Assembly: GCA_905178155.1 (NCBI GenBank)
Contig: CAJINV010000017.1
Span: forward strand, 1,108,722-1,172,721
Direction: 5' to 3'
DNA from: Amoebophrya sp. A120
Lineage: Eukaryota; Protista; Dinoflagellata
Length of the DNA stretch: 64,000 nucleotides
Both the position numbers and the translations under genes were made by a program. The notes beneath the pieces were generated by a model. It worked only from the letters and a program-made list of their open reading frames with translations, made no database searches and had not been told where the DNA came from. The first letter of the stretch is position 1. The number at the start of each line of letters is the position of its first letter. Below are positions 3,469 through 48,246 of the stretch, piece by piece.

Positions 3469-4702
3469 GAGACGCGACCCTTGGTACAGTAGGGACTTTT
3501 CCTGAAAACGGCAATGACTATCACTCGCATGGCAGATGTACAACTAGTAATTTTTGAAGGAAATACAAAGGATGTATATGATTTAATAGTTAGAACAAAT
3601 AGCCGTAGCGCAGCGTCAATTTTGAAAATTCATTTTCCCATGTCGCCACGACAAAGTATTGACGGCGAGACATGTGTGTAGGTGTATTTGATAGATAGGC
3701 GAACTACGTGTCCTTTGATAACAACAACGAAGAAATAGAAACAAGCTCAAGTAAGTAAATCATTTTCCATTGGAGCGCATCTCCATCTGTCGCCATGGTG
3801 TGGCGGCGCAAGAACTTCCGCATCGCTCCCATGCAAAACAAACGAGAAATGGAGCAACGATTTTGATTGTAAGGAAAAATCAAAGTAGCTGCAAAACCGA
3901 GGCGCAGAAGAAACAACAGGGATCTTCGTAAAAGCGAACGGATTTATTTTGCCTGTGGGGTGGAGGCGGTGGGTTTGCCCAACAGGAGTTGAGTCACCTC
4001 TTACGTCACAAATACCGATGCGAGTTTTTTTTTTCTGCGGGAAGGAGAGACGAGGAGTGCTGTCTCAAAAAGAGGTCGTCGAGCACGACGACAATGAAGA
4101 GAAAAGAGCCAGTGCATGGATGAAGATGAGAGAAGAAGTACGGAAGGGCTATCAATAGGCCCAATTTATTTGTTTCCTTGTCACCAGTGTCATCAGGTTT
4201 TTTTTTTTGCTGCTCCTTGTTCGTTCTTCAAGCGCGCACCTTTTTTTCCAATCTCCAGGTCGGAGCAGAGAGAACGAAAAGAGCCAGAATCAGAAAAGAT
4301 GAGATGCAGTAAGAATCTGCTCATCAAATACTTCGTCGAGGAAGCTGCATCATGAATGGAATGACGTTCTTTCCATTTTGACGAAAAGGAAAATATGAAA
4401 TTCCGGTAGTTAAGCTGGGTCAGAACAAACGGCATCATGCCTGATGGCTTGTTGTAATCAATATCAGATTACTTGAACAAGCAGAAGCAACAAGGAAGGA
4501 CCAAGAACGGAGAAAAGCGATCTGCCCTGCCTGCTAGGCAGCAAGTTACGTCTGGACCCAGCAGCTTCTAAGCAAGCCTGCGGAGACACGACGACACACA
4601 TAAAGCAGCTGATACTGCACCGCGCTCGTCCGTCTGTTTTTGCGAGAAACGAAAAAAACCGCTTTTGCAGGAGGAAAACCCACTGCTAGCGTGAACAAGA
4701 AG

Positions 4703-7700: not shown

Positions 7701-10700
7701 AAGGACTGGGACGCCAGTAAGGAGACGCAGGTCCGGTTCATTTGTCCGCTGAAGGAAACCTCCTACGTCGGCTTCAACGCGGTGGTGGAGGACGCGTCCG
7801 CGAAACTGGTTTTCAACAACAAGTTGCTGCGGAATTTAAAGTCCATCACGGCCACCGACGGTACCCACGGCGGGACGGACTTCGGCGGGGTGGACTTTTA
7901 CTACCCGATCACGAACTTGGAGATAAAGTCCGACAACCCCGATGGCGTGCAGTCGTGGAAATTGGACACCTTCTGCGAGGAAAAGTCGCGGTCGTACGAT
8001 TTCATCCTCCAAAACGGCTGGATGATGACACCGGTGGTGACGGACTTGAAAGTTTCCACGGGCGACAACTGCATTATTATGCATTGCAAAAGTATCGCGC
8101 TCGTAGTAATCGCAACCACGTTCATGACGCACCATGACAAATTTAATGCTCGTACGTGATTCAGCATGACAGATTTTTGCGTTTTTGTTGTTGAGAAAAT
8201 TTTTTGTATATGCGATTTAAGTACAAGTAGCACGAGACTTTTGCAATGCATAATGATGAAGCCGAAGAAGTTTCAGCTGAACGTGACAGAGTACCTGATC
8301 GAGTGCCCCCAGTCCACGGAGTACATCGGAATTACCCCGATGCTGAAAGATATCGGGACCCGGATGCTGGTCAACGACGACCTGTTCCCCGCCAACGAGG
8401 AAATCGATATGGCATTCTCAAACGTTACATTCTCAACTGTTACATGGATTTGTCATGCAAAGCTACCTGCTGAAGCCGCCAGTCGGAGATAATCAAGCAT
8501 CTACGCATGACAAATTCCCGGAGTGCTAAACAGCATGCAAATCTGTAATGCAAAAGGAACAATCTTCCCCCTTTCGCTTTTGCCGTTCTTGCATTACAAA
8601 TTCATGCAACAGTTGAGAATGTAACATTTGAGAGCTCCATAATCGAGCCCGTGCACTTGGAGGCCGGCGACGAGCACGTGTGGGACATCACGTTTCTGCC
8701 CCCGATGTATGCATGTTGCAAAAGTATTTCGGACTCGTAGTTGTACTTGCAATCATGCATGACAAATTCATTTCCATCATAGCCATAGGCATAGGCAAAT
8801 CAACATAAACAAATTTCACTTTTCAGAAAAGTGAAATTTGTTTATGCTGATTTGCCTATGGCTTTCGCTTTCAATTTGCTCAACAAGAAAATTTCTTGTT
8901 GAACAAATTGAAATTTGTAAATGCAACTTTATAGAACCAGCACGACTACGATACTTTTGCAATGCATACGATCGACCCGGACACGAAACAGGCGGTCTAC
9001 GGCTACAACGCCGACTCGAAAATCCACATCAAGGTCACCGGCGTCCGGTTCGCTATGGGAATGTCAGGATTGTTTGAAATCGTCAAAGTTGAAACTATAG
9101 TTTGTCATGCATAAAATCGACACCACTTGGAAGCCCAATTTCCAAGCAGCGCATGACAAATTTTGGCACCGTCCAAATCCAGTTTATCATGCTGTTTAGG
9201 GACAGAAGGCGTCTCCTGTCATGCTACTTTAGCAGCTCTATCGCAGACCCCAAACAGGCTGACCGTCGGCCTCACTTGCCATCCCTGCAAGAGAGGCACT
9301 ATATTCATTCCTTGCAATTTATGCATGAGAAATGATTTCAACTCTGTCGATTTCAATCCTGACGCTTCCATATTCGCGCCCTGGGGGTTGGGCCAGGCCG
9401 CGACGGAGATGATCGCGTCCATCTGTTCCGCCGCGGGTCTGGGTCTGGCGGTCGTGTCCGCGAGCAACTTCATGGGGGTGGCGAAGTTTCTGCAGTTTCT
9501 CGGCATTCTGGTCGCGGTCCACGGCACACCGGACGCGTTTAAAACGTTCTGCGCGTCCTTTTCCAAGGTGAATCTGCAGTTCAACCACCTGGACGACTAC
9601 ATCAAACTGCCGCACTTTGACATCAAAAAGTACATCCCCTTCGACATCAAGAAGTTTCAGAAGATGGCCGCGCAGGCCGCGGGCCTCCCGTTTCGCGCGC
9701 TGAAGGTGCTGCAGAAGCACGCCGAGACCGCGGTGCTGAAAGCGCATCTGCACGTCGCCGGTCCAGATGAGAAACTGAGCAAGAAACAACAGTCCATCGC
9801 TGATATGACAGTGCGCAAGAACTCCCCCTCGTTCTCATTTCTCATGCAAAGCCCCAGATCCAGTTGCTTCCACCTTGTTATCACTATTATGATATGTATG
9901 ACAGATTCCGGAAGCTGCGTAAAAATAAAAAAGCTAAACAGTCGTGCTACACTAGCCGCATGAAAAAGTTGTCATCCGTAGCCTCCACGTGATGTGCTGG
10001 TGTTTGTATTGCTGTTCATGCTATACAGATGAGGGAGGTAGTTGTGACCGGTCATAGCTGACGCGGCCAAGCGCGAAGCGGAGCAGATCGCGGCGATCCG
10101 GAAAAAGTACCGGAAACAGTACATCAAGTTCAAGCAGAACTTCGCCAAGCTGAAAAAATCTTTTTCCGAAAACAAGGGAACCCTGTTCAACTTGTTCCTG
10201 ATCCCGATGATGCTTTCCGGCCTCATGGTTTTCTACGTCGTGCGCTACGTGTTGCGGCTGACCCTGCCCGAGGGGTTCATGGGGTACGACTGGGACCAAG
10301 CACGGAACGAGCAGATGAAGCCCAACTTCATTCTGCTCTTCATCTGCGATTTGGGCTTGATCGGTTTCGTCAAGGCTGCCTCGAAGATCTATTGCGAGGG
10401 CAGCACGATCGAACTGTACCTGCCGGATGCGCACGAGCACTGGGGGTTCTGGAAACCGCCACGAGACTTGATGAACCACGTCTGTTTAACCCTGTTCTTC
10501 CTCTACCCGGTCGCGTTTCTCTACTTCACCGCACGCGAACTCGCGAAAAACCAGCGGCAGGTGATCTACAACAAGGCACTCAAAGGGTACGCCGACAAGG
10601 AAGGCTGTTTGGAAATCCGGGCGTCGCAGAACGCGCCGTTCCCCATACCGGTGCTGGGGCAACTGGCGTCCAAGGTGAACTTCGCGATGAGCACGAACAT

Positions 10701-13700
10701 CAAGTCCGTGTCGCCAATTTTGTGGGCCAAAAACACCAAGGGAGAGTACATCTACGACAAGACGAAAAAGACCCACTGGGTGTTAGGCCTCGGGACGATG
10801 CTCGAGGGAAAAGTGAAGCTGAACACGTTGGAACTTGCGCAATCTACAGACACCGCCCGCGGCGGCACGCACAAATCCGACGTGTACTACCAGTGGGACC
10901 AGATCAAGGTCGGCAAAGTCGAGGACAGCGAGAAAACCCCGCTGAAGGAGGGAGACGTGCTTTTGAAAATTGGCAGCAGAGACGACTTTGAGATGGACAA
11001 AACCGGGTACGAATTGACCGACAAAAACGGGCGGAAAATTATCCGGATGCGGGAAATTCCCTACATCTCGCTGTCCGCTCTGGAGGACGAGTTGTCGGAC
11101 CGCTGTTGGGTAGAGGTGAGGCGAAATGGAGAAATCAAAAAGTTCCAAATGCCCCCTGCGAAACTCACGACCGGATTTGACGTGTGTACCGGGAAGGTGA
11201 CCGGGGTCTGCAAGGGCGCCGCGAAGGGCGGGGGCGGTTTGTCGGCGCTCGCTGGGTTGACCACGACGGAGGAGCCTCTGTCCGCGACCTCGCAGCTGAA
11301 GTTGAACTTCATGCACAGCTCAATGGACAGCAGTAGCGAAGTGGTCACGACCAACGTGGATCGCGATTACGAGGTGCGGGTGTTCGTCGGGAGCATGACC
11401 GACGGGTTCAGTTTTAAATCCAAAATGATTCCCACAAAGGCAGGCGATGAGTCGTTGGACAAGAAAAAATCGGTGCGACGGTCCGACTCCGCGCCTTTCG
11501 GGTCCCTGGATCCCTCGAATTTGATGATGTCGCACGCGACCGACTCCATCAGTTGGAAGCCGGCGAGCGAAGGGAACCAGTTGCAGGTGACGGAGCCGGC
11601 CTCGATGGGCGCCGAATGGAAAGAGCTTCCCGATACCAATTTGGGCTATTACAAGTACAGTCTCAAGACGGGCGGGAAGTCTTTACGAACGGATATCATC
11701 ATGGAGTACAAAATGGTCAAACCCAGGGAGAGCGGAGACGACCTGATGAGCCAACTGGCGGACGTATTTATTGGCATTTAGATGGAGCAGGACCAGGAGC
11801 TAATGCTTGTTAGAACTTGCGTATGCAGAAAATATGTATGGCTTTTGCTGCTAGTCCTCGTGCTATCGTATTCTTGTTGCGATCTTAAACTGAGTCTGGT
11901 AGTGTGTAGTCGACGAGGCAAGAACACATGAAACATGACATGTTGAATTTAACTACATCAGGCCAAAGGCATGTGCTGTGGCGCGGAGGGCGTTGCCGGC
12001 GATAGCTCCAAGGGCCCGGAGTTCGACGTGGACGATGCAAAATTCTTATCACACAGAAAAAAGCTGGCAGGGCACATTTGTAGCGCAAGAATAAACGCAC
12101 AAAAAAAACCTGTATTGCATATCGGAAACAGCATGCTATGGGGCCACCCATGACAAATTTTTGTGTGTGTTTATTTTTGCCTTACAAATCTGACCTGCCA
12201 GCTTTTTTCTGTGGGATAATTCTACCAGCGAATTTACTCCGAGGAAGCCAAGTACGACGCCCACACGTGTTTGACCGGCATGGGCATCGGGAAACAGCCC
12301 TTGAAGCCGCAGTTCGACCGGGCCATCACGGGGGAGCAGGTGCAGGAGGAAACTGATAGCAAGGACGTGGTATGCATTGCAAAAGTATCGTATTCGTATA
12401 AATGCAATACAAATTTCTGCAGCATGAGAAATAAAATTTGTAATGCAGATTTAGCTTAAGAAAGGGATTTGTAATGCATGATTGCAATACGAGTACGATA
12501 CTTTTGCACAGGATACGTGGAAAATGTGGACAACCCCTGGTTCCGCGACCTATCAAGTGCAAAAATGTTTGGGTCTGAGAGAGCATGAGCACAACTTTGT
12601 CATGCACATTTTCCATGATCCATGCTTTCTGTGACGTATGCCAAAGCATCACAGATTTTTTGAGCGCTTATCTATGCGCAGCCAGCATGACAAATACCCT
12701 CTCCGCGTAGCCGAATTTGAATCCTCTTGCACAGGTTTTTTTAGCATCCAAATGCAGCATCACAAGACCCAGACATTTTTGAATTTGATACGACCCCACC
12801 TACGACACAAAGTACTGCCGACGAATCCTCCAGCTGCCCATTCCGGAGAAGCTCGCACTGGAAAACGCGGACGGCGAAAAGGTGCTGGCTAACTTGAACC
12901 ACATCAACAAAATCGTTTTGCGCGGGATGGGCAGCTGCTCGCGGGGGCAGTCCGAGGTGTTCTTGGTGCTGCGGCAGGCGAGCCGGTCCCTGAAGTTGGA
13001 CTTCTCCGTGGTGGGCTCGAGTTACTACGCGCGGTCCGTTCTGGCGAAACTGAAGGAGAACCCGACGCCCGGGCAGCAGGCCATGGAGCGCACGGTGACC
13101 GGGTTGTGCAACGCGATGTGGGAGAAGACGAAGGAGCTGGGCGGCCAGCCGATCACGGACCAGTTTGTGTCCATCGAGAAGTGGAAGGTGGTGCCGGGCA
13201 ATCCGTTTGCGGAGGCGAGACTACAGGTTTCCGTGGATGTGGACCTGGACAAATCCGGTTTTGTAGAACAAGGAACGGAGGACGGATACGATTTGAAAAC
13301 CAAGGAGTTGGTGGACCACTGCGCCAAGGCGTTCCAAGACAACGGCAAAGGGTTTCTCACCCTGTTTCTCCGCGATCTCGCCGAGTTGATGGGCTCCGCC
13401 ATGACGCAGGAGGAAAATACCGCGTTTGCGACCATCACAGAGACCTTCATCCCGACAAAGGGGAAGCCGGCGGCGAAGTGCTACCTGGATTCGATCAAGG
13501 AAAAGTCGAAACTGGGAACGTTGAAGAAAAAGCTCACGCAGATCAAGTTCGAGGACGATTTTGATCACCCGTGTCTGAACCAGGCGGTGGGGAAAGACAC
13601 GTTGGAAGTGTGGATCTGCGGACCCTGCTACAACGGCGTGGAAGCGAACTTCAAGGTCGCTACGGCGTCCATAACGTGCGAGAAGGACGCGGCGAGGACA

Positions 13701-19700: not shown

Positions 19701-22700
19701 TCTTATCAATATTGGATGCTTTGTTCGTCATCTGCGCTACACAGTAGTTCTGTCATGCATAGAAGCTAAAAACTTTGCTTCGTCAGTTTCCGACTACGCA
19801 ATACACGACTCAACCGATGAAACGCGCTCATTTTGCAAAAGGCACAACACTATATACGTCCATCGCCTTCTCCCAGAACAACTCCTGGAGCGTCTGTCCG
19901 CCGTTGACGGGGGCACCCTGCAGCAAATGGGTGGAGATGGCGTCTTCCAGCAAAGACACCTGCTGCAGCTCGATCGCATTGCTGATCATCATCATGTTCT
20001 CGCGGATCTCGGGCATGTTGTTGTTGCCGGACACGAACGCGCGGGCCTGCGCGTACGCCCTGTTTTTTATTGTCAGAATGATGTATCTCATGAAATTACA
20101 GTTGCGTTTTTCTGTGGCACTGAAGCATGATTTCAATGGACCGACGTAAGATTACGATGTGAACAGCATCACTTTATCAACAAAAACACACAAATATACC
20201 AGTCGCGAAACTGGACCAAGGTCCGGGGCTGGCGGGCCGCGGTCCGCTGGAAGGCACCACCCTGAAACAAAGCGATGATTCCCGCGCGCTCCACTTCATC
20301 ACGGGCTTCTGGGTGGCGCATTAAACCGCACAGACGATCGCACACGCCGAGAGCACGTAACCCGTTGGCCTCATCGGTCAGGGAGGCAAATCTCCCCTGG
20401 AGATGGACCTGAGTCGTGGTTCTTGGCCATGATTTCCACTTCAAATGGCAGTTTTGTCATGCAGAAATCCATACTTCACAAAAGCATCATGCGATTGTCA
20501 TGTCGGTCAAGTTTGTGATGCACAAGTTCCAAAATTGATGTAGTACTGCCACACGACGTTCTTGATCGAGCGTAGTATGATTGAAATCGGCCCTTCCCAA
20601 ACGGGCCGCTTCGCGGGCGATGATGTCGGTGCGCGTGAAGAGCACGATCTGACGCACCGCCGAGGGCAACGCGGCCATGGACCTGGCGATGACGGCTTCG
20701 TGGGCCAGTTCGAGGTTACCGATCTGGGCGTCAGTCAGGGTGGAAAGGTACTGGACGCGACTCAAAAATTATGCAAGTTGCAACTCTAGCTCAGCACCTC
20801 AGCCGCGTCATGCATGCCTGGCTACTTCAAAAATGCAAAAGCGCATGACAAACTCATATGATCAGATATGCTATTTCACAAGCATTAAGCACGTAGTCGC
20901 ACAGTTGGTCGAGACCAATTTGCATCATAGTTAGCATGACAAAGCAGTAGTGTAAGGTGCTGAGCTAGATATTGCTACCATAACAGACGGGTCCGCATGC
21001 GACCTTCCTGACGCCAGAGGGCACCCATGGCAGCGACATGATTCGCGTCTTGCTGTAGTGGTAATTTTTTTGAATTTACAGTATGTCTTTTTCACATCAA
21101 CAAGCGTCTGCTCATCCATGATAAAGGCATTCTATGCATGACAAGTTCAAAAATGTGTACCGGCAGAGCTGCGTTCTGCAGAAACTCCTGGGCGACCTCT
21201 CCAGTGGGGTGACGGGCCAATCTGTTTGCCATCTTGACACGCTTTTTTTTTCAAAGGAAGAACTCTCCACAAAGGAAGAACTCAAGAAGTAGTTGGCTAC
21301 GGGTTTTGTGTTGATGAAGATGATGAAAAGCAAGTATTAGATGGCGCGCGTCAGAAATTCAAAATTGTAAAATGAAAGTATCCAAACAACATCAAGATCA
21401 TCAAAGCAGCCGCCTTTTTTTCTTCACAATTACCACTGTCAAAGTGAGATCTCAGATCTATCCCATAACTTGAACTACAACAACAACAGTCATCTCATTC
21501 TAGGCACTGCAATGCGCTGCTTCATCTCTCACAAAAAAAAACAAAACAAAGAGCCGACTTATTTGATGATGTCAGCACGTTTTTACCAAGTACTATGTGT
21601 GCTGAAGCTTACGACACGACAACGCCATCATCGACGCCGAACTCACACAAAAAAAAACCTTGCTTTACTTCTGTATTGTGCGCGCAATTCTACCTCTATG
21701 ACATACTTGCATGCTGTGCTATATCAACTCGAGAAGTGCCTTCTTTTTTCATGTATGTTCCACTACTTGCATGTGCAGTCTGTCATGCTTCTTGTATGTC
21801 AATCCAGCGTACTCAATTTATGACATGCACTTCGAAGTCTACTAATTTGTCATGCTGTGTATCACAAAGCAGCAGTACTATGCTGCTTCAACTTCCCATG
21901 AAGAGTTGCGCTATGTCCCTATGTGTATGCATGATGCTACTACTGTGTGGTTTTACTGTCACGCACTACGTCCATCTACAGGTACACTGTTTGTATTACA
22001 AGCTATGTACTTTCACACGAAGTAAGGTCGTTCTACGCAGTTAAGATTGTACAAAGTTGTCAACGCTTCTGGCTTATATATAGGTCTTTTGCGCGATGCT
22101 AAAGTCTACAGCTGTTCCTATGTAATATTCAATTTGTGCACTATATTCTACTACTTGCAATGAAACTACTGTCAGGTACACCACTATTCTACACGGCTGG
22201 CCATCGGTAACTCGGACAAGAAGGCGAAGGTCATGGCGCAGATGGTCAACGCGTCATGGTGGTGATCTAGGGCTCGCAGGTATCCGTTCGCCCATGGTGA
22301 CCATCTCCGTTGCCGCATGACCGCGAGGGTGAAGTAGTCGTGGTGGGCCAAAGTTCGATGACCAGCCGTGAAGTTACTATATACTACTTTACTAAGCTTT
22401 TCTTGTTCTAGTAGTGCTCTTTTTGACACCTTCTACGCATTACAAATTGACGCTTTCTTGTCTACTTAAAGCTACATTTTCTGACATCCTTTAAAAATGA
22501 CGATTTTTCCTCACAAAAAGTGATCACTTTTCCTGCTCAAAAGTGAACTCGAAAAATGAGACGTTTTGCAAATTTGACCTCGAAAAAAAAGTCTTCTGAT
22601 TTTCTAGAAGGTGAACTCGAAAAAGTCTCGCGATAATGGAGAATATAAGTAGGACATGAGTCTTTTTTCTAGACTTTTTTTTTGACTATGCAGATGCAAA

Positions 22701-25700
22701 AGGTGACTTCGAGGAGGAAAAGCGAGAGACTTTTTTTTGTGCTCAAAAGTGATCATTTTTGAGCTCAAAAAGTGACCACTTTTTGTGAGGAATAATTGAG
22801 ATTTCCTTTGAGAGATGAATTGTACAATAAATCAATGCTTTTTGAACCTGAAACTGTGCAGAATATAAGTGTGTTCAACTACAACTTGAGGTGCCCGACC
22901 ACCTTCACTGGGCCGGCACTTGGGACGCCGATTCTGCGAGCACGTCATGCTGTTTACCCGCACCTGCAGCAGCCATCTTTGGCTGCTTTTTGGTCTTGGC
23001 CTTGATCCTCTGCTTCTCCACAAGGACATCGGCGATTTCCAGGTATTCTGCGTCGATCTTCTGGAAATCCAACCACGACGTAGTCGACTTTCCGGGCGAG
23101 AGGTACTTGTAGGTCTGGTCAGAAATGTGCATCAGAGCGTCGAACTCCTTCTGCCTGGTAGCGTCCTTTCCAGCACGTTCGGCGGCAAAAGCACGGATCT
23201 CCGAGGTGTAGGCGGCGTACTGGGACTTCAAAACCTCCAAATCATCTTCGGTGGACTGCGGTTCGTACTTGCTGTTGGAGCTGGCTTTTTCGCAGATGAA
23301 ACGGCACATCACGGCCCACCCGTTTAGGAGGCACTCGACCCAAAGGGGTCCCTCTTTCTCGCCAAACACCATGCTCCTCATGGGCCTCTTCGTCGACTGG
23401 CACTTCATGTCCAGGTAGGGGTGGACGAGGAGCTTTTTCATGTTGTTCGCCAGCTTGGTGTCCACGCACTTCATGCTCAGTCGGACAGCATCTCTTCCGG
23501 TTCTCTTGCGGTCAAACACCGTCGACGCTTCGATGCATTTCCACCCTTCGACTCTCGTTGCGAAGAGACGATTAGCAACCTTCTGTCGCTCCAGCTGATG
23601 CAGTGCGTATTCCTTGCTCGAGAGGTGCATCTTCGCCGTCGCAGAAAGGGCAGTCATGCCCTGCGTTTCCACCTGCGTTGAAGCCTGCGTTTGCGGTTCC
23701 TCCACGACGATCTTGTTCGTCTTTCGCCACGTTTCCGCATGGACGTCATCCGACTGTAGTGGCATTGCTACCATCTTGTTGTCGTCCAGAACCCAGATCT
23801 TGTCGGTCGATTTCGGCGCGGTCAAAGCCAGCATCGTAGGCTGCAGAAACTTCTCCAAGTTGTCCTGCATTTGGGCTTTCTCGCTATTGCTAGCGGAGGC
23901 CCACCCTTCCCTGAGCACCTTGTCCTCCTCCTTTCCCGCCTTGGTCCGCTGCTGCCGGTACGACAGGTTGATCCGTTCTCCACAGAACAAGCACGCTTTG
24001 CTTCTGCCGTCCTTTACGTCGACTTTCATCGTGTACATCGGCCCGAGTGTATCCCGTGAAAAGCATTGAAGCTGCAAGCCAAGCATTACTACTATGCATT
24101 AGATATTTGCATGAAATATGTAAAGGTTTTGCGCACAAGAAATCAAATTTTGTAATGCAAAAATCAACATTTGTGATGCTTGTCATGTAGCTTCAATGTT
24201 TTGGTTGCATACATCGTATCCAGGTCGTATTCGGTGCCGCGGTCGTCGGAGTACAAGTTTATCCAGGTCATTCGCATCCTGCACTGCCACCACTCCTTTC
24301 CCGGATCTTTCTGCAGTGCTAATTGCACCGCTTTGAACGATGATGGAGACAGCACCACGTCTGAAATGAGGAACGTGTGCATTTCCCCCGACGGACGGTG
24401 CTTGTACTGCGTTATGAAGAATGGCGACAATAACGACGACACGTCGTGCACCCCCTGCAGTACCGGCATCGCGATGTTGTCGTCTTCCCCAACTTCGTCT
24501 GCGTCTTCTACCAGCAGTTCGTCGTCGACTATCGATCGCAACAATCTTATCCTGCGAAGAAGGCCAAAGTTTTTGTATGCAAGCATGCGAAGCTTTCTGT
24601 TTCTTCGCAGGATAAGATTGTTGCGTTTCGATAGCATCATCATCCGGCTCGGCGAGGTTCAGGTGAGCTAGATCACCGGGTTCGATTCCAGCAGCCTTCT
24701 TCTCTTGTCGCAGCGATTTCAGCTTACCGCGCTTCGCCCGGATGAAACGCGATATCAGCACAGCAGAAGCCGGTTTAACTTTCGCCCGCACCGTCACCTC
24801 CGGCGGCTTTTCCACTGTAATCAGCTGGTTGGTTCTGTTGCACATAGCGGGTGCAAGTTTTCGATAGTCGCCGTCTTTTGTCAAGTACTTTTGCAGCACT
24901 CGTTCCTGCACCCCTTCGTAGTACAGTTTCTCGCGGTTCACGACAGCAAATTCCCGGACTTCTTCCTCCTCTTCTTCGCTTTCTTCGGCATCCTCATACT
25001 TCAGCTCCGCCGCTAGTAGCTCCTTCTTCTTATCCATTTCCGCTGCGATGATGGTGTATTTCGCTTTTTCGTCGTCGTCCTTCCAGGAATTCAATTTGTG
25101 ACACTTTTCTAGCACGTCCGCCGCTGTCATCTTCACGTCTTCTTCACCGTCCTCCCACTGGTCTTCCCGTTTCGCATCTATCGGTCGTGTGCAGGCGTAG
25201 TGCCGTTTCGCTGCGGGTTCGCCGGTATCGTCGTCTTCTTGATCCGGTAGCAAGTACGGCCGGCATTCCTCTTCCACCACCGAAGCCATGTTTTGCCAGT
25301 CCTTTCTGTTTAGCTGCGCGTCCGGTCGTATGCGTTGAAAATATGTAAAATAGCCTCCTGCAAGTAAAAATCAAAACTGAAAAAGCACTGCAGTTTGCAT
25401 GCAAAAAGTTACGTTCTCATCATGTCGTTGCACAGATTCGTCATGCCTTATGTAGTATGTGGTGCCTTTTCAGAAAAAAACCTGTAATGCAAGAAAGCTA
25501 TGCTACACATTTTCACTTCATAACTCCGGGGATACTCTTGGTTCCAGTCTTGCACCGCTTCGCATGCCACTTGTAACGTCCACCCCGTTTTTCGCAGTTT
25601 TTGGTGCTGCGGTTGGCAACTTCGAGGCATTCGGTGAGGGATTTCATCTTCGCTTCGCGGATGTTCTGCGGCAGATTCCGCATATACCGCTGTACAGAGT

Positions 25701-28700
25701 GAAGCGATATCGACCCGGGATCCCCTTGCGTGTACACGTCGAACTTGCACTTGTCCAACTGCTCCATGGCCTTCTTCAGGTCGACCCGCGCGTTCCCCAA
25801 CCATGTCTCATGCAGATCGCACTGCCCGTCGCGATAGAGAAGAATACAGCGGGAGATGATGAGGACGTGTTGTGCATTTATCCGCGCCAGCTCTATCTGT
25901 TTTGCATTTTAATTCTAAATATGCATTTCAACAGTCCTCGTGTCATGCTGGAAAATGTGCATGACAAAATGGAAAGGTTGTTTTATTCTATACCAGTTCA
26001 AGTTGCGCATCCGAAAGCGTCACACTTCCGATCCCGATGCCGCACATCAAAAACGCCAGATCATCCAGCACTGCCTGTTTGTCGCTGAAGTAGTTGTACG
26101 TGCTGACGAGATCCTCCCGAAAGGTTTGCTTCAATGCCGCCCGTCCTTTTTCCCGAACATTGCTCCGCAGCGTGCTACCATTATAACGCTCGATGGGGCG
26201 TATCAAGTGAAGCAAAAACCAACTCGTCACCAGGAAGAGGAATTGCGTTCCTGATTTTGTTATGAGTTGAAGATGTAAGTTTGTCATGCTGGATTGGCAA
26301 AAATGCATGATTTTTGCATGAGAAAAAATGTGCATTTGCATGCTTTTCTACCATGCACTTTGTGGAACCGTCGATGCATGGCAATACTATGTATTTGTAG
26401 CACCTGTCTTGTTGCGCATGTCCACCGTAAAACCATGCTCCAAGATTTTCTCTTGGCCGAAAGAAATTCTTTCGCCCAGTCCCGTAAAAATTCTTCCTAG
26501 GAAGAACGCGGTCGCCAGGGAGAGCTGCGTCAGACACGACATCACCGTCAGCCATCGTGTCCAGACCGGACATTTGAAGCCGCGGTACAGACAATGCAGC
26601 GCTCGCATGCATTGATGCTTGCTGTTTCGCGGGATGACGAGCAACTTCTGCCGCACACTGCAGTCCCGGAAGAAGTCTTTTTTTTTCGTGTCCATCGGTA
26701 GGCGGTCCAAGAAAGCACACAGCTTCTCGTCTTTGGGTGGTTTCTCTCCTTTGTCCCACGGAGCGAGCCATTGCTCCACCTGGTCGAGGCCGTTGTGGAT
26801 CTTCTCCTGCAGCAGCTTGATGCTGTGAACCTGGATGATAAATATAGAAAACAATGTTGATGCGCATAATATTTCATTTGTCATGCGGAACGTCATAAAA
26901 TTTGTCATGCAGAAACGAAGCAAATACTGCGTGGCTATACCTGTAACCAAAGCCTTTTTTGCCAACCAACCGGGTCGAGGTTCATCGTCCCCAGGTATAG
27001 CTCCGCAACCTGCTTCGTAACAAGGGCGGTTTGATGGACTTTACAGCGTTGCGTCCAAAGTACAACGTCGGACAAGTACTTGGACGCCATGAACAGGCCC
27101 CCGACATAAAACAATGTCGGGATTGTACTACCGCCGGAGTCCGTAACCGGCGACCATACTTTGATGGTGTTCTGCGACCAGTTACTGAAAAAAACTTCCG
27201 GCGAGTGATACGTCCATAACTGGTCTGCCACCTCAAAAGCTTCACTGTACCCCCGGAATGCTGATTTTTGGTTTTGTTGTCGTGGTCCAAAATCGTAGCT
27301 CGATGGGTACATCACAGTATGTGATGGCAGGAAGACGGAGCCCATTTTGTCGATGTTGCCACAGCAAAAAGTTATTGCCACCATGCTGATCATGACGTGG
27401 GCAAACACTTTTATTTTTCCGCGAATGCTATTCTCGAATAGCATGTTTTGGCACGTAGTGCCATCTATTTCGACTCGATAATGTACGAGGGAAAGCCTGC
27501 TGCTGTCGTTGAAGTAGGTCTGGCTGAACTCGAAACACGTCTCGACCAGCAGTGCGGCTAGTTTCCACAACTTCCTCGGAGCGAGGTACGACTGCGAGTT
27601 GAAAAAGGCCGCGCGCTCCTCCTGTTTTTCGTTCTGTTTCGCCGCCGCATCTTCTTCTTGCTTTTTTGTCTTCGGCGCCTGGTTCTTCTTCACCATTTTC
27701 CTACTCCGTGTTGTTACGCCGAAAAACTGGTGCGGAAACACAAACGACGGCGGAAGAACAGGACCGCGCCAGTAGATGCGGATGCAGTTGTTATTATATA
27801 GCTTTACTTAGATGGGATTGCGTGCTAGCAAATTAATTATTTTATCTTAGGTATGTGGGTATTGCTTAGTTTAAAAAAAAAACCTGCCTGCTAGTAGGAG
27901 AATAGAATATGCATTTTGTATTTCCAAAAAAAAATACTTGCGTTTCCCCGTTCTCGTGCTGGCACTCTTCCGCAGCCCTTCCCTCCTGATAGCGCAGCCA
28001 AAAAATCTCTCAGCCTTCTCTTCTCACACAAAAAAGCAGCTCGTTTGGTATTTCGAAAAAAACGTCGCTTCTTGCATGACAAAAAAATTACCGAACACTG
28101 CCTGCAATTATTGCAGATGTAGTTGCAGTTCGCAGCCGCTTCTCGGCGCAAGATGTTACTCGCAGCGACACTGCGAGCGCTTTTGTTTTGTGTGTATCTC
28201 CCACCGCCCGGTCGCGCTACCACTTTCCTACCGCTGCCTCTTCTACCCGCGCCGACTGCTTGCCCGGTTCTATTCTGCAGAGGAAAGATCTTGTTGCTAT
28301 TCACGCGAACGCGAACAGGTGCAGAATCGTTTCCCTTTTTTACAAAATAGCCGACTATACACAAGCCCGCTACAGTTAGAAAGGAAAATCGATAAGCTCT
28401 TTTGCCGTACTACATGATCGTCGTGCTATGCATTTCGAAATGCATAGCACGATGATCATCGACAAAAGACTTTTCGTTTTTCTCTTCAGCCTTCGAAGTA
28501 GCAGCTCTGTAAAAGTCCTCCGCTGTGTGCAGCTGTATCTCAAAACCGAATACACGAGGGTCGACGGTATTATTTGGCTGCGAAAGTTCGCAGCCAAATA
28601 ATCGAGTAACAGCTGCACGTTGATCAGTACTATTTTATTTGCGCCGCACATCCGCGTATGGATTGTTGTGTGTCGTGATTACTCATCGACACACAAGAAT

Positions 28701-31700
28701 CCAAACCTGGGCGCTATGCTACGAAAATAGTACTGATCGCATCGCGGAAAAAAAACTTGTCGCCGAGAATCGAACCGGCGATCGCAAAAAGGGTGAAAAG
28801 GGACTGAGACAAACAACTCGGCCCCTTACCCGCTCGGCCAAACGGCCGAGCGGACTGCATCGGTCATCGACCTCGGAGACCCTATCACAGCCCAATACGG
28901 GCTGTGTACGTTGTCGACATTTTTGATCATGCGTTTCCGCATGATAAACTGCTTTGAGCGACACGACGACAGCCAAGTCGTCTGTCGCGATAGAAGTATA
29001 GTGCCGGGTTTCGAACCCGACCTCGCGAAGGGTGAAAAGGGACTGAGACAAACAACTCGGCCCCTTAACCGCTCGGCCAAACGGCCGAGCGGACTGCATC
29101 GGTCATCGACCGCGGAGACCCTATCACAGCCCAAAACGGGCTGTGTACATTGTCGACAAATTTGAAAATGCGTTTCCGCATGATAAACTGCTTAGAGCGA
29201 AACGACGACAGACAAGTCGTATGTCGCGATAGAAGTATAGAGACGGGTTTCGAACCCGACGCTATCGACGGCCAAAAGGAACTGACGGAAGCAGCTAGAT
29301 CGCTATTCCGCATGGTATGGTGGAGGATCGACAAGTCGAATGACCACCATACCATGCGGAATAGCATCGATGCAGCATACCATGCAGTTTCGACCAAAAA
29401 AATGAGATGAGAAGGCGAAACCGCTATAGAAATGCACCTAACGACGTGAATAGCAACTTTGTTTCCAATGCAAAGTAGACCGTTTTTTTCCAAAATTTTT
29501 CAAAAAAAAAAAATCTCAAAAAATTGAGAGAAAATCAGATGACTTTTTTCATCTGAGGCGCCCAGCTCAACAAATGTTCCTGCCATCGCGCATTTGCATG
29601 ACAAACTCTGGGGAGGTGGGGGCGTTTTTAGACAGGATACGAGAAGAAGAAGCAGGTCATGGACTTCTTCGACCTAAAGAAGTGGATCGAGGGCTTCAAG
29701 AAAAAGAAGGCCGCGTACCAGGACAAGATTGACGCGATTCAGGACCGCATAACCCAGGCCTTCGCGACGGCGGAGAAACTCCGCCAGATGGCGGAGGCGC
29801 GCGCAAAGGCGGCGGAGGAGGCCGAGAAGAAGAAGCTGGAGCAGGGTTTGGTCGAGGAGGGGGAAACGGAGGACGAAATGGAGACGGTGTTCATCGGGAA
29901 AGTGAACGAATCCCCGGCGAAGAAGCCGCTCCTCTCCACGACCGCCGGCGCGGGCGACGTGGAGATGACAGCGTTCGGGTCTGACAAACCCCTCCCCAGC
30001 GCACGCAGACAAAAATTCGACTCCGTGGAGAGCTCAAATTCCGCCCCTCCGCTGACCGCTAGAACCGTGGAAAAACTCGCGGCGAGCGAGAAGTCGAAGT
30101 GGGACGACATGCTGGTGAAGTCTGCTGGCGATGTCGGCGCCGCACCTACCGCCGATTCAGTAGACAGCATCACCGCGCCCACGAAAAAGTCCGAGGTGGT
30201 GGTGATTCCGGGCGCGAAAGCACTGGTCGAGGTGCAGGCCGTCACCGGGTTGTCGCAGCAGGGCCCGTTCGTTACGCTCGGGAAGCTGGTCCGCGCGATT
30301 TTGAAAACGATCACCTACCCCTTCGTGGTTCTGCTCAGCCGGGAACAGTTGTCCGCCCTGATCAAATCCGTCGCGGCGGTGTTCGGAACCCTGGGCGTCA
30401 TGTACGCGCTATTCAGCACCGATTCGACGTTTTCCATGGTGTTCATCCTGGCGATCACCGGGGTCGTCGCAAAAGCAATCTTCGACGCGGGCGCGCGCGC
30501 GGCCACGCCCAGCGAGGCGGAGAAGGAGGAGCAGAAGCTGCAGCAAAAAGCGAAAGCGCTGCAGGAGCGAGCGCAACTGGAGGCGAAGAAGGTAACCTCC
30601 ATCCACACCAAATCGGTCCTGAAGGACGACGGGTTAAACGCGAAAGACCACGTGGTGTCCGCGTTGGAAGCGTGCGAGGCGGTGGACGCGGCCTGGGCCA
30701 AGGGCGAGCACACCTTCGTGAAAATGCCGCCGGCGATGATAAAAACCCAGAAGCGGGTGGTGCCCGACGTGAACCGCGGCTGGTTTGAACTGAAATTGAA
30801 CCACTTCGCGGCGGGAAAGCAGCCGGACGCGCAGGAGATCGGAACCAGCCTGAACAGCGACGACATGTTCACCATGAAGGATTACGTCTTTGACGTGTGC
30901 GACATCATCGTGGACACGTTAGGTTTGCGATTGCCTTCGGACGTAAAGCCGGTCAGACACACCAAGACGCTCACGAAAAAACTGCTGCAGGTACTAGAAT
31001 TGATTCACTGCTAGTATCGGATGAAATTGTTGAATGATCAGCATGATGGTAACAGGATCACTGCGGGGGCAAACCTGGTCCTGAAATGATGATGCTATGC
31101 GAATGCAACAAAAATTCGCCAGAAAAAAAATAAAAAGATAAACTCAAACACAGGTTAACAAGCCTCTCGGAACTACCCGTGACCTTGTTCAGTCCTTTCC
31201 GATCCAGATTTCCGTCGAGACGCTCCGGGGCGAAGCGGAGAAGAACAACAAGCAAACGCAGGTCGCGTGCACTCTATCAACTGTAAAAATGTCTGGGTCT
31301 GGAAGAATTCATGTTTGTCATGCTTGTCTGGCATGGCTCTTAAATCTGTCATGCACGTTACCCAAGAGCTCTGCTTTTCTGTGATGCAGGAGCGCAGTTT
31401 GTCATGCAGAATAGGCAACACCTAGGAGCTCAGAAACTTGTCATGCTGAGCCAGCATCTGTAGCTTCATCATGAGACGCCACCCAGCATCACAAGTTTCC
31501 AGACCCAGACATTTTTACTTTTGATACACCCTGCAGATTGTGAATTTCGTGGGGAAGGGGCAAGCGGACCGGGCCGATAACGACAGCTACTTGACTATCA
31601 TTTGTAAAAACGTCCCCACCCCAGAGTTGTGATGCAGATTTGCAATGACAGGAACATTTGTAATGCGCATCGACATGAGAGGCGTTTCTAGTCGAGTTTT

Positions 31701-43265: not shown

Positions 43266-46200
43266 ATGATGTCCGAGGAACCCGAGGCGGAGCAGGACGT
43301 TCTCTCCTTTTCGGAGCGCGTCCTGAAGCAGAGCCAGCACGCGCAGGCCCACTGTCTGAAAAAAGCCGCCGAGTACCGCCAGGACCCAACTAGGCTGCTC
43401 CTTGATTTAACGGCTCTACGAGAGACGGTGCTCTCGACCAAGGTTCCGGGAAGCCAAACGGGTGTCCGGGCGCTGGTGAGAGGCTGTGAAGCCCTTCGGA
43501 GATCACAAGTTGCAAGGTATGTCGAGGAGAATTACTTGCTACAACCCGGTCCGGCTGCTCTTCAACAAGGAAACAGCAGCGGTACGAGCGAAGAGGTAAA
43601 TGCTCAACTGCAGCACAATCAGGACGCAGGTGGACCGCAGTTCCTTTACGACAACCCAGCACAACATGCTGAAGAAGGAACACCAGCAGATCCCAGCAAC
43701 TTCACGATTCGCGAACTACTTCTGAAGTTCAGAAGAGCACTCCTCACGTTCTACCACTTTCTCGCGACGCGCCTCACACCGGTACAGCGAAGCGGGCTGC
43801 GATTGGTTTTCGCGTTTTGGATTTTCACGTGGCTGCTGCAGAGACGGTGGAGAAGGCTGCGAAATGCTTCGGAAATTACACGAACTGGAGCTACAACTTC
43901 TATTAAAGCCAAGAAAAATTATTTTTCTAGCGAACTGAATTCCACAAAATCAAAATCCCTCGCATCGTCCGGAGCAGTGGCTCAGCTCATTGGCCTCTCA
44001 ACCTTGATGCATGACATCAAGGAGGGCAGGATTGAGAAAGTCGAGTTTCTCGGACCTTCCTCAGTCATTGCGCAGTACAACGATAGTATAAGCGTAGTTG
44101 ACTACGGAAGCACTGCAGGAGGTCGGGGCGTAGCTGGCGAAACGGGTAGTGGTGAAAGAGGATCAGGAGGACGGACGATGAAAAATCAATTGTCACCACC
44201 AGGCCACCACAAGACCTACGTCCCAGCACCATCACCAAGCAACAAGTTTGCGCAGGCGGTGTTAGCCCCGGGCTCCCGGGAAGCGTTTTTCGCTTTGGTG
44301 CGGGAGCACGTGCCGCAGTTTGCTGTCGGCGAGGTGCCGCCGGAAAAGCTGGCGACGCGGTTTTTTCGAGGGTTGCTGCAGCTCGCGGTCCCGTCCGCGT
44401 TCCTGGCTGTTTGGTACCAGCTGCTAAAGTCGATCATCGATAAGAAAGAGGACTACGATCCCTCGAAGCAAAACCGGAGACAGTCGAACTTGGGGAATCC
44501 AAAGGACCGGCAAGTGAAGCTATCCGACATCACGCTGCCACACGCGGTGAAACAGGAATTGTTTGAAGTGGTGGACCTTTTGAATCACCCGGAAAAGTAC
44601 CGCCACCACGGTGTGGTTCCCTTTCGCGGCGTTCTCCTGACCGGCCCGTCAGGAACCGGGAAGACGATTATCACAAGAGAAGCATACTACTGTTCTTCTC
44701 TGTATAGAAATTTGTGATGGCGAGGAGGCAACTAGCTACACAGATCATGAAAAAGTGTGTCACTACACGAGGCAAGACAGAGCATTTTTCGTCCATCTTG
44801 TGCTGTAGTTTTTTCTTCGGAAGCACGCAATGCAAGTTTCCTTTGTCGCGGAGTGGTTGTAGAGTAGCAGTTGTGACGCAATCGCAAGCCCAAGCCCCCT
44901 TCCACAAAAGTGATATGAAGGAGGGAACAGCCATTTTTTTTTTCCTCCCGATAACGATGGTGGCCCGGGCAGTGGCTTACGAAGCGGAGGCCGCGTTTCT
45001 TTCCTGTGTCGGGTCGGAACTGATCGAGCTCTACGTTGGCCGCGGGGCAGCAAGGGTGCGGGCGATTTTCGCGAAGGCGCGACAGCTCGCTTGTGCCGCG
45101 AGTGGTCCTGGTTGCGGAACGATAAGGAACGGGAAGAGGTGGAATTTCGGGAGCGGGACGTCGAGGAATAGAAGCAATTGTACTTCGTCTGCGCCGCCTA
45201 TTACGCATTGCAAAACCAAAAGCAGAGTCAACGTACTAAATCATCTTAATTGCATTCACTACGTGTTGTATAGAAAAATTTGTGAAGCTGCAGCTGGTTT
45301 AGAAACTACAAGGGAAGCAGTACCACAAGACAGAACGACGTACTTCAGATGCAATATTGAGATAGGGGCTAGAAAGATGAATGCACGAACTGCGCGAGAC
45401 TTCTGCAGTGGATACCTGCTACTCCCCTCCAACACTTTCTTCGGGCCGCAGCGGGCAGCGTCGGCGCGTCGAAATACTTTAGCATAAAGGCAGGGACGAG
45501 CCGCCAGCATGTGGAAAGTACCTCGTCCTGCGTGCTATTTTTCGACGAGATCGATGCGGTCGGGGCCAGGACTGGGTCGTCCAGTCGGATCGGCAGCAGC
45601 GGTCCGCACGACGAGGTGATTCAGACGGTGAATCAGTTGCTGCATGAACTGGACGGCTTCGGATGTTCCGCGTCCGACGACCGCGTGTTGGTGCTCGGCG
45701 CCACGAACCGGTACGAGGCTTTGGACAGTGCGCTGCTCCGCCCGGGCAGGTTCGACCGCCAGATCTTTTTGCGGTTGCCAACCGCAAAGGAGCGGGGTCT
45801 GATTCTGGAAAATCTACTCAGGAAAAAGCCGGTCTTGCTGTTTCCGGAGCTTGGCGAGACATTGGAAACGCTGTGCGCCGACGAAGTGATGGGAAATACG
45901 AGCAGCGGCGTCTGCTTCTCTATGAAATTGGAAAGGGAATGTTGATCATGTTGTGAATGTATAGTCATGTGGTCACGCAATACTGGGATGGTGAAAACGA
46001 AAAGGTGAAAATATAAATGAATTCATTTCTGTCATGCACGCGACAGACACGCTGAAATACTCCTCGCTGCGGGTTACTGATGTCCTCTTAGTTTGCACTG
46101 TAATTGTATCTCAAAACGACATCACAATTAGACTTTTCCAAGTCACATTCTCCGGAGCGGACGTTGCCCACATCGTCATGGAGGCTGTCTACAACAGTCT

Positions 46201-47623
46201 GCGTCGGGAACCGCAGATTTTGGTGAGGAAAATTCCGAAGCGGGAGAGAGGCGGTCCAGTTCCTGGCGCACCAGGAACATCAACATACACGAGTGCTACG
46301 TTGTCCCCTTTCGCCTTCGCGACATCAAGCAATAAATGGCGGCCCCTTGACATGTCCGTTTTGCAAAACCACCTCAATAGTGGTAGATCGGCGGCCGCGG
46401 CTCCTAGTACTGGCGCAACTAATGCAGCGGTGGAGAAGAAACCGAATGCGACGCGGCACTGCGGCCCCGGAACAGCCGCGGCGGCCTCGCGCTCCTCGAC
46501 GTCAGGAGCATCCTCGCCGAGTAAATGTAAAGCGAAAGCAGCTCCTGCAAAGGGAGTTGCAGGCGGCACAGGAGCATCATCTTCGGTGACGACGGGAACC
46601 CCCGCAGCTCGGAGTTGTAACGCCACCACATCTTCCTCGTCGTCCGTCGAAACTCCGTTCCCTTCCTCTACCACAGCCACGCCCACCACGTGTTTCACCC
46701 CCGACGCAGATGTTTGGGAGCAATCAGGAAGGCTTGCCCTTGGCCGCCCCCGCGAACACGCAACAGTCTCAATCACCGGACTGGGAGCGGCCAGTCCGAC
46801 GGGCGCTAGTGGAGGAAGCTACGGGGGCCAAAATAGCACTACGTACGGACTGAATAACCGCTCCCTGATTTCCCTAACCGGCACTGGCGCTAGAAACGAG
46901 AGCAGGACCCAAAATAGCAATCGACCGCGCGCGGACTCGACAGGCGCGTTTTCCGACACCAGTGGGAAGAGTGACGCGACCTTTCGCACACCGTCCTCTT
47001 CGGAATCGATTTCGGCGCAGGATGTTGCATCGAGCAGAAGGGGAAATGAGAGGAGAGGAAGTAGTGGGACGGACTCCAAAGCTCGTCGTGTTCAAGAGGA
47101 GCCAGGTCGCCGCGGGGCCCTAGCACAAACTAGCTTTTACAACATTGGTAGCAGTTCTGCTGGGAGCTCGGCAACCTCGGGCTCCCTCGCAGCAGGAGCG
47201 GACAGCGCCACGAATACCAATTCTAATTCCTCCTCTGACAGTTCCGACGATGATGAGGACGAAAATAAACTCGACACGTCAACATCCAATGCGGCAGCCA
47301 ACCTTCTGTCTCGACTCTCAGACCATCAGCCTATCCTGCGCAGCTGGATGCAACGAGCAGCAAGCTTCGGCACTGCAACGGAGTCTCTAAATGCGGCCGG
47401 ACCTTCTGGTGGAGTGGAGGCTCCTCATGAACTACAGGATCATATGACCAAACCTCCTCGCGTCGCGATTCTTTACTGCGACCTGGAGAAAGCCGTGGCT
47501 CGGGTCGCCGCGCAGGTCCGGACAAGGGCGCAGGGGGAAAGATGGAAACTCTTTCCCGGTGGAGGGGGTGGACAATTTGGAAAGGATGGTGAGAAATTTT
47601 TTGCAGAGGCGCTGGCTGTTTAA
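43266..47623 (+). CDS. FtsH-like membrane AAA+ ATPase with no recognisable M41 protease domain
   Basis: Two TM segments flank an FtsH-type extramembrane stretch. Walker A GPSGTGKT (followed by introner 44669-44958, DR acgat), pore loop ELYVGRGAARVR, Walker B LFFDEIDAVG, SRH ATNR...DSALLRPGRFDR, lid FSGAD. No HExxH seen after the ATPase domain. Confidence 0.8.
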
Positions 47624-48246
47624 ACAAAAAGAAAAAGAGGTGCTACTCGTTCAGGGACGAGGAGAGGTTTTCACTGGATCTGGAATTGGCGAAAGCCCAA
47701 TTATCTCCACAGAGCCGCGCCCGAACAAGGCAGTTCTTTTTCATTTTGCTGTACAACTCGCGTTGTTCCCTCAATAGCATGACTTTCACAGGCGATGCCG
47801 ATGTAGCCGTTGGTGGAATCCTCGTTCCTCGTCGTTCTCCAGCAGGTTGCTCTGTGAAATATCAGTTGTCGTATATATGCTTTTTCTAGTTAATAATTCT
47901 ATTTGATGCGGCTTGTCGTCGTAGCCGAGTCCCGCGGCTCGTGACGAAGACAGAATCGACACCAGGCGGACGAGGACATTGAATATGAAAAAAAGTGTCT
48001 TGCTTGCTAAGTGACGTCGAGTGAGAGTGTGTCACAATTGCGATTAGCGCAGATCCTTCGAAAAAAAAGGCTCGGCCTTCGTGCCAATAAACTACTACAG
48101 ATTAATAAATTTTAGAGTACGTTGCCCTCGCGAAGAAGCCCGAGACGGTCGGCTCCATTTTTGACTTGCTGCAGCCGGCTGAAGATCTGCATACCTAGAG
48201 CTTCGTTTTTCGTCGCTGGCGCCTGTCTTCTATATTCGTCAGACGA

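Follow-up and report, generated by a model that had tools for sequence, protein, structure and literature searches.

Two questions are raised by a run of minus-strand open reading frames (ORFs) in the genome of the dinoflagellate Amoebophrya sp. A120: does it encode a transposase of the hAT type, and does such an enzyme still belong to a mobile element? The run starts at position 27696 of a 64,000-nucleotide (nt) stretch of contig CAJINV010000017.1 (positions 1,108,722 to 1,172,721), which is called the window here and to which the coordinates refer. A reading made from the sequence alone had described four exons at this place as an apparently intact, highly divergent hAT-type enzyme of about 605 amino acids (aa). 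We consider it probable, mainly from a predicted fold, that a Hermes-like DDE domain is present. With more reserve, we lean towards the full statement, which is that the locus would be a stationary seven-exon gene with an N-terminal Hermes-like DDE domain of about 600 residues in an RNase H fold.

The four-exon frame

In the splice model, four ORF segments and three GT-AG introns on the minus strand gave 607 codons with zero internal stops, in line with the stop-free frame that the sequence-only reading had counted. The spliced frame was 1824 nt long and was followed by a TGA at 25515-25513. The motifs named in that reading were found in the order given: IDGTT at residue 77, VTDSGG at 184, CKVH at 218, TRW at 343 and CEKR at 581. 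The parts of this frame are as follows.

26941..27696, minus strand: exon 1, residues 1-252, start ATG at 27696; it holds D78 (27465-27463), D186 in TDSGGS (27141-27139) and C218/H221 of CxxH (27045-27034)
26831..26940, minus strand: intron 1, 110 nt, GTATAG..CCAG, with two copies of GCATGACAA
26404..26830, minus strand: exon 2, carrying WTRW, with W345 at 26554-26552
26251..26403, minus strand: intron 2, 153 nt, GTGCTA..TCAG, coinciding with a gap in the alignment of the relative P0007
25994..26250, minus strand: exon 3, which contributes to the predicted all-helical insertion domain
25897..25993, minus strand: intron 3, 97 nt, GTATAG..ACAG
25513..25896, minus strand: exon 4 as first read, coding 25896-25516, TGA 25515-25513; it holds HETWL, with E510 at 25809-25807, and CEKR, with E582 at 25593-25591

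A small family with conserved motifs

When exon 1 was scanned with HMMER against 1.84 billion representatives, only 9 matches reached an expect value (E) <=0.001. The best was P0001, with 44% identity and an E of 1.1e-66. Five of the nine were Amoebophrya proteins, three from strain A25 (P0005, P0007 and P0008) and two from AT5.2 (P0001 and P0002); the other four came from environmental assemblies. The Amoebophrya relatives are labelled 'unnamed protein product' or carry bare gene-model identifiers, and no function is given. The family is lineage-restricted and without functional annotation.

Other searches added no relatives. A word-indexed homologue search with exon 1 gave no match. The same type of search with alignment A1 also gave none, and carries little weight, as it missed the alignment's own members too. 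The ESM Atlas held no usable match for exon 1 or for P0007 residues 430-1115. A metagenome scan with alignment A3 matched 201 pattern stretches, none of which was a relative.

Identity among eight family sequences was 23-44%, and paralogues from the same strain were less than 50% identical. Only 12 of the 252 exon-1 columns were invariant. These included, in all eight sequences, D186, S187, G188, G189, S190, W214, R217, C218 and H221; counterparts of C218/H221 were also present in P0007 and P0002. D78, the Asp of IDGTT, was Asp in all seven sequences that cover the position. The last Trp of WTRW (W345) was kept in five of five (the window, P0005, P0007, P0002 and L001, the metagenome locus that encodes P0009), and the Glu of CEKR (E582) in four of four (the window, P0005, P0007 and L001). 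The first 51 residues of exon 4 were misaligned in MAFFT and were excluded from alignment A6. In a family whose members are only 23-44% identical, conservation falls on these motifs, and the set is therefore more than a chance assembly.

Six ORF-type relatives lost similarity precisely at the end of the window's exon 1, and in L001 similarity resumed about 190 nt further on. The first intron is accordingly old and shared.

Predicted fold and likeness to Hermes

A single-sequence AlphaFold prediction of exon 1 was unusable, with a predicted local distance difference test (pLDDT) score of 34.3. Residues 1-663 of P0005 were modelled instead, with a 12-row alignment that included the window's exons. 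By alignment, D96, D213, C244/H247, W370 and E599 of P0005 are equivalent to D78, D186, C218/H221, W345 and E582 of the window.

The order of strands (E) and helices (H) in the model was E88-98, E117-127, E134-138, H179-199, E205-212, H219-233, a short strand, H245-263, helices to about residue 575, and H577-611. D96 lay within strand 88-98, and D213 immediately after strand 205-212, the predicted strand 4. Helix 245-263 opened with C244..H247, and helix 577-611 held E599. The region 245-575 was helical except for one small hairpin, with pLDDT mostly 32-66. The core was better, with pLDDT 68-87 at 61-90, 181-210 and 221-240, and 78-87 at 561-590. The model thus predicts an RNase H-type order of elements, an all-helical insertion of about 330 aa and a closing helix. 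In hAT enzymes, an extended insertion made up wholly of helices, placed after the second Asp and before the Glu, is a hallmark (PMC4763223).

A Foldseek search against 350,542 PDB chains placed Hermes at ranks 1 to 10, with E of 1.8e-4 to 2.8e-3, probabilities of 0.75-0.96 and alignments spanning about 580-656 columns. The next transposases were the P element (E 0.11) and RAG (E 0.22). VIA-align, an aligner independent of Foldseek, was run on 48,161 representative chains and also ranked Hermes first. The 8edg_A chain gave Z 6.7 and a root-mean-square deviation (rmsd) of 7.4 over 249 aligned residues, model 53-619 against chain 146-576, and five Hermes entries had Z of 5.4-6.7. The RNase H-fold nucleases matched the predicted core at rmsd 2.9-3.7 over 109-134 residues.

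The likeness to Hermes (PDB 2bw3, 4d1q, 8edg and 8sjd) thus extended over a predicted RNase H core with one Asp on strand 1 and another after strand 4, a CxxH just past the core, a long predicted all-helical insertion with a conserved Trp (W345, the candidate counterpart of Hermes W319), and a predicted closing helix in which basic residues come after a Glu. On the other hand, the window protein had no detectable sequence similarity to Hermes, about 700 extra C-terminal residues, and longer spacing, with 108 residues from one Asp to the other and CxxH 124 residues ahead of the Trp. In Hermes the corresponding distances are 68 and 51. The gene also had no terminal inverted repeats around it.

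The choice of the third catalytic residue was less direct. E510, in HE.WL, is a second Glu as well conserved as E582 (four of four) and is a rival candidate. E582 is favoured for two reasons. Terminase, Argonaute PIWI and Cas9 RuvC aligned to the model from about 72-88 through 588-635, counting the first and last aligned residues only, and so reached the closing helix. In addition, the basic residues K593, R594 and K596, at +11, +12 and +14 from E582, recall those of Hermes and of the domesticated transposase Kat1 of Kluyveromyces lactis. According to PMC4763223, Kat1 K907/R909/R911, which follow E895, match Hermes K585/R586/R588, which contact the transposon ends.

By analogy, D78, D186 and E582 would bind two metal ions and the domain would nick DNA. 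Hairpin formation might then be aided by the CxxH and the Trp, as in Hermes and Kat1.

Weight of the structural evidence

Several observations weigh against a Hermes-like domain. The modelled protein was the relative P0005, which is 26% identical, and not the window's own protein. The model was weak (mean pLDDT 53.8, predicted template modelling score 0.48, 341 of 663 residues below 50), and its confidence was low near W370 and E599. The template modelling (TM) scores to Hermes were low, at 0.14-0.22, in keeping with the loose packing of the model. The VIA-align Z of 6.7 was barely above those of Cas9 RuvC (6.5) and the terminase nuclease (6.4), and below 8, the tool's caution line, under which a match may reflect a common arrangement. 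The equal conservation of E510 belongs here as well.

The sequence profiles pointed the same way. Exons 1-3 matched no Pfam family at E up to 1, and at the same limit exon 4 gave only two sub-threshold matches to domains of unknown function. None of the 9 relatives matched a Pfam family at E up to 0.01, Dimer_Tnp_hAT-type profiles included. Sequence searches of the PDB with profile A2 and with P0005 gave no match at E<=10. Hermes has a Trp (W182) two residues after its first Asp, and the window has none there. The window protein also has no BED finger, as the sequence-only reading had noted: both a zinc-finger pattern and a Pfam zf-BED match were absent from the N-terminus, and the first 80 residues contain one Cys and one His. 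BED zinc fingers are common, but not universal, among hAT transposases.

These points would fit an Amoebophrya protein specific to its lineage, whose N-terminal domain is a generic RNase H-like or merely alpha/beta one and does not derive from a transposase; the Hermes matches would then stem from a weak model and from short motifs recurring by chance. Such a protein would have no sequence-level tie to any transposase, and low model confidence, low TM-scores and poorly separated Z values are what it would be expected to give; the tool itself cautions that low-confidence models yield meaningless matches. The C-terminal half of about 700 aa is unexplained, and the proteins of this genome are highly divergent: 13 large ORFs of the window, 263-682 aa long (10048-11778, 45995-47620 and 48199-50244 among them), all lacked a Pfam match at E<=0.001. 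Against this, the ten best of 350,542 chains were all one protein, matched over about 600 columns, and an aligner other than Foldseek also put that protein first. The family-invariant residues agree exactly with the expectation for a DDE/CxxH active site and lie on the expected strands and helices of the model, and the insertion is of the hAT type described in PMC4763223. We regard a generic domain as unlikely, and prefer the Hermes-like DDE domain.

The proposal of a divergent hAT-type DDE enzyme thus held in part. Its RNase H-like strand and helix order and its closeness to hAT transposases by Foldseek were recovered, in a low-confidence model of a relative; a match to a hAT profile was not.

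A probably longer gene

The gene is probably not a four-exon unit of 605 aa. The relatives and the continuous ORF of L001 point to a coding region that continues to 22905, or about 1,337 aa. P0005 is a complete protein of 1,247 aa, and P0007 is 1,115 aa and cut at its N-terminus. The tblastn alignment of P0007 fell into six collinear pieces, which span the window from 27114 to 22941 and leave gaps that matched introns 1-3 exactly. Two alternative seven-exon models, of 1,338 and 1,336 aa, were both free of internal stops. Their identity to P0007 was 33% over residues 2-1110, and that to P0005 was 26% over residues 83-1242. The parts of the long model after exon 3 are as follows.

25536 or 25517, minus strand: end of exon 4 in the long model, at in-frame GT-AG donors
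25358..25535, minus strand: predicted intron 5, GTATCC...TTTTTACTTGCAG, 178 nt; its removal takes out the TGA and lets exon 4 continue in frame into the ORF that follows
25516-25306, minus strand: alternative to predicted intron 5, GTGAAA...CTAAACAG, 211 nt, in-frame GT-AG
24626..25357, minus strand: predicted exon 5, acidic, ...IDAKR...KLNSWK...; tblastn match to P0007 residues 445-639, E 7e-20
24532..24625, minus strand: predicted intron 6, 94 nt, whose removal restores the frame; alternative, a 73-nt GC-AG intron at 24624-24552
24203..24531, minus strand: predicted exon 6; tblastn match to P0007 residues 608-742, E 6e-9
24060..24202, minus strand: predicted intron 7, 143 nt, removed in frame; alternative, a GC-AG intron at 24208-24072
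22905..24059, minus strand: predicted exon 7, ending in a stop; tblastn matches to P0007 residues 739-1110 (E 1e-37) and P0005 residues 1069-1200 (E 4e-10)

Several in-frame GT-AG introns were able to remove the TGA, and the best-looking was 25535-25358. A further GT-AG combination, donor 25516 with the strong acceptor at 25358, was rejected as out of frame.

L001 gave a view of the same junction. There a single ORF, 2450-3304, spans the place that corresponds to the window's TGA; it takes in the HE.W motif, the Glu motif (EEKLGRIKRHAK) and, after them, an AIDLKR...NSW region. The window counterpart of that region lies past the TGA, and the motifs of predicted exon 5 recur in the L001 ORF.

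Variation was also raised locally. In a near-identical public assembly, 25357-25546 was present in two contig versions, one identical to the window and the other differing from it by 8 transitions in 190 nt. In the contigs on either side, which are mostly exonic, there were 9 differences in 2,078 nt and 4 in 2,516 nt (0.2-0.4%). The two versions suggest two haplotypes or strains that differ chiefly in this likely intronic stretch.

Taken together, the collinearity of the 1,115- and 1,247-aa relatives down to 22905, the seven-exon models, the in-frame GT-AG pairs, the L001 ORF and the locally raised variation indicated that the TGA at 25513 most likely sits inside an intron. The gene is likely to run from 27696 to 22905 on the minus strand, with seven exons and about 1,337 aa. 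The 605-aa model then probably covers no more than the first 45% of the protein, and the gene is probably about twice the length first described. A point against this structure is that the three downstream introns (5, 6 and 7) are predictions only. Three RNA runs with the same species label gave no reads on 22700-28300, and so provided no test of expression.

Predicted exon 7 encodes a C-terminal domain common to P0005 and P0007, with no match in a Pfam search. The final ~550 residues of P0005 and ~600 of P0007 had no similar counterpart in L001, so the far C-terminal domain is possibly not universal in the family. Moreover, the family member in L001 is followed by a convergent ORF, which leaves at most about 1,000 aa for the transposase-like gene; the far C-terminal domain may therefore be missing there. 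This convergent ORF (L001:3840-7265, minus strand, 1,141 aa) carries, by eye, kinase-like HTDLKPANF and DLG motifs.

Mobile element or resident gene

Two elements inside the gene bear on this question.

24625-24537, minus strand: element at predicted intron 6, 89 nt, with a perfect 25-base-pair (bp) inverted repeat and ATCGA/TCGA flanks; introner-like
24202-24060, minus strand: element at predicted intron 7, with an imperfect inverted repeat of about 14-41 nt; fold z -2.83

The first forms a hairpin of -47.6 kcal/mol (z -9.15). Both coincide exactly with the frame changes between predicted exons, and both look like Amoebophrya introners, which have inverted repeats at either end of the intron, short direct repeats spanning its boundaries and non-canonical splice sites: the two predicted introns are closed by inverted repeats, and the first is flanked by a 4-5-nt repeat. 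They differ in that they lie inside the gene and are not its product, and their splicing is predicted. The 25-bp inverted repeat also exceeds the 8-20 nt reported for introners.

The gene could itself be the transposase of a still-active autonomous DNA transposon with unrecognised ends, perhaps the mover of introner elements. Its reading frame is uninterrupted, none of the candidate catalytic residues has been lost, several divergent paralogues occur per genome (three in A25, two in AT5.2), and it contains the two elements above. In the genome paper, introners are called miniature inverted-repeat transposable element (MITE)-like, and no general transposase had been found for them (Farhat et al. 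2021, PMC7789003). In A120, diverse introners of the terminal inverted repeat (TIR) DNA-transposon type have been reported (Gozashti et al. 2025, PMC12130899), and two A120 rows of supplement file 8 class the introner families as 'TIR DNA / Unknown'.

The recent polymorphism was likewise of the kind seen in individual transposon copies. Compared with the near-identical public assembly, exons 1-4 had 11 differences, 9 non-synonymous and 2 synonymous, none of them on a candidate catalytic residue. This fits the neutral expectation (0.664 non-synonymous for transitions), and a non-synonymous to synonymous rate ratio (omega) of 0.3 or less was rejected (P 0.003). There was thus no sign of recent purifying selection over these 11 sites, which counts against a maintained resident gene.

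The surroundings did not look like those of a transposon. No above-chance inverted repeat joined 21500-22950 with 27700-29650, the longest being 11 nt and A/T-rich. None was found in L001 between 1-408 and 3301-3900, where just 408 nt upstream of the gene are covered. A second copy was found neither in the 64-kb window nor in L001, and contig word depth over the gene (43.9-62.1, a weak measure) equalled that of the flanks. The first intron is at a position common to relatives of only 23-44% identity. The typical target-site duplication of hAT elements is 8 bp, in contrast to the 4-5 nt at the first introner-like element of this gene, and the ends of that element (CGCAAC...) are unlike hAT ends. 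Introner direct repeats in Amoebophrya are likewise short, 3-5 nt (PMC7789003), and do not match the longer duplications of hAT elements. An active transposon is on this evidence quite unlikely.

Paralogues that share an intron position, the long extra C-terminal half and the absence of flanking terminal repeats argue instead for a stationary gene, which most likely descends from a transposase and belongs to an old Amoebophrya family, either domesticated or a relic. The shared intron, at this level of identity, leads us to favour old vertical descent.

A decaying relic, truncated at the TGA with untranslated downstream ORFs and a functionless product, is very improbable: the in-frame stop and the 9:2 ratio suit it, but the seven predicted exons (about 4 kb) are stop-free, in-frame introns can excise the TGA, the downstream ORFs still align with P0007 (E 7e-20, 6e-9 and 1e-37), and the TGA surroundings vary about ten times more than the exons in the variant contig, as an intron would.

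A stationary gene of this kind has a parallel in Kat1 and other domesticated hATs, in which a hAT-type catalytic domain resides in a host gene outside a mobile element (PMC4763223). Kat1 retains the DDE residues, the CxxH and the Trp, with basic residues about 12-16 positions past the Glu. Kat1 differs in having a BED finger and in acting on known inverted repeats at the MAT locus, and the window gene differs in its recent polymorphism without purifying selection.

Surroundings of the gene

The 9-mer GCATGACAA occurred 31 times on both strands of the window, against 0.88 expected, and none of 100 shuffles reached 31. The copies seen at this gene were in introns and just upstream; examples are as follows.

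25959-25967, plus strand: GCATGACAA
26281-26289, minus strand: GCATGACAA
26878-26886, minus strand: GCATGACAA
26902-26910, minus strand: GCATGACAA
28074-28082, plus strand: GCATGACAA

Flank conservation stopped at GCATGACAA(A)(t/c), so that this is a discrete short site and not a repeat family. A transposon end was considered and rejected, as no longer repeat family surrounds the site. It may act as a signal in regulation or in splicing.

Upstream of the gene, the divergent intergenic region contained a tandem duplication at 28789-29260 (about 233-239 nt, 94% identity), and two near-perfect palindromes lay upstream at 29302-29365 (31-nt arms, 87%) and 28414-28459 (23-nt arms, 96%). The window is gene-dense with short introns, and no Rfam family was found within it. 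Gene orientation was in blocks, plus to about 15.5 kb, minus from 16.3 to 27.8 kb and plus from 29.6 kb. These blocks and the ORFs without Pfam matches are in keeping with directional gene clusters in a genome that evolves fast. By eye, a Walker-A-like GPSGTGKT closes the ORF at 43266-44717.

Implications for introners and for hAT-type domains

Amoebophrya genomes are full of non-canonical introns that resemble miniature DNA transposons. The genome paper argued against a transposase-driven spread of introners, as just one of the two strains had yielded putative transposases (PMC7789003). The word 'transposase' was absent from one supplement file of that paper, and a literature search combining Amoebophrya and hAT gave, by title and abstract, nothing on transposases. 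A Hermes-like family common to several Amoebophrya lineages has apparently been undescribed so far, and the hAT class of some introner family might have escaped notice.

It would be a long shot to take this family, present in at least three Amoebophrya lineages, as the missing introner enzyme, either moving the elements as DNA or acting as a domesticated nuclease that recognises their inverted repeats. No observation here ties the Hermes-like family to introners. A conserved, profile-invisible Hermes-like family with an intact-looking catalytic site would nevertheless reopen the argument on transposase-driven introner spread, and would supply a concrete protein to test against introner ends.

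With no BED finger, no profile match and a long C-terminal fusion, the domain would rank among the most divergent of the hAT type. It would also illustrate that searches at the level of the fold recover transposase relics where proteins evolve very fast.

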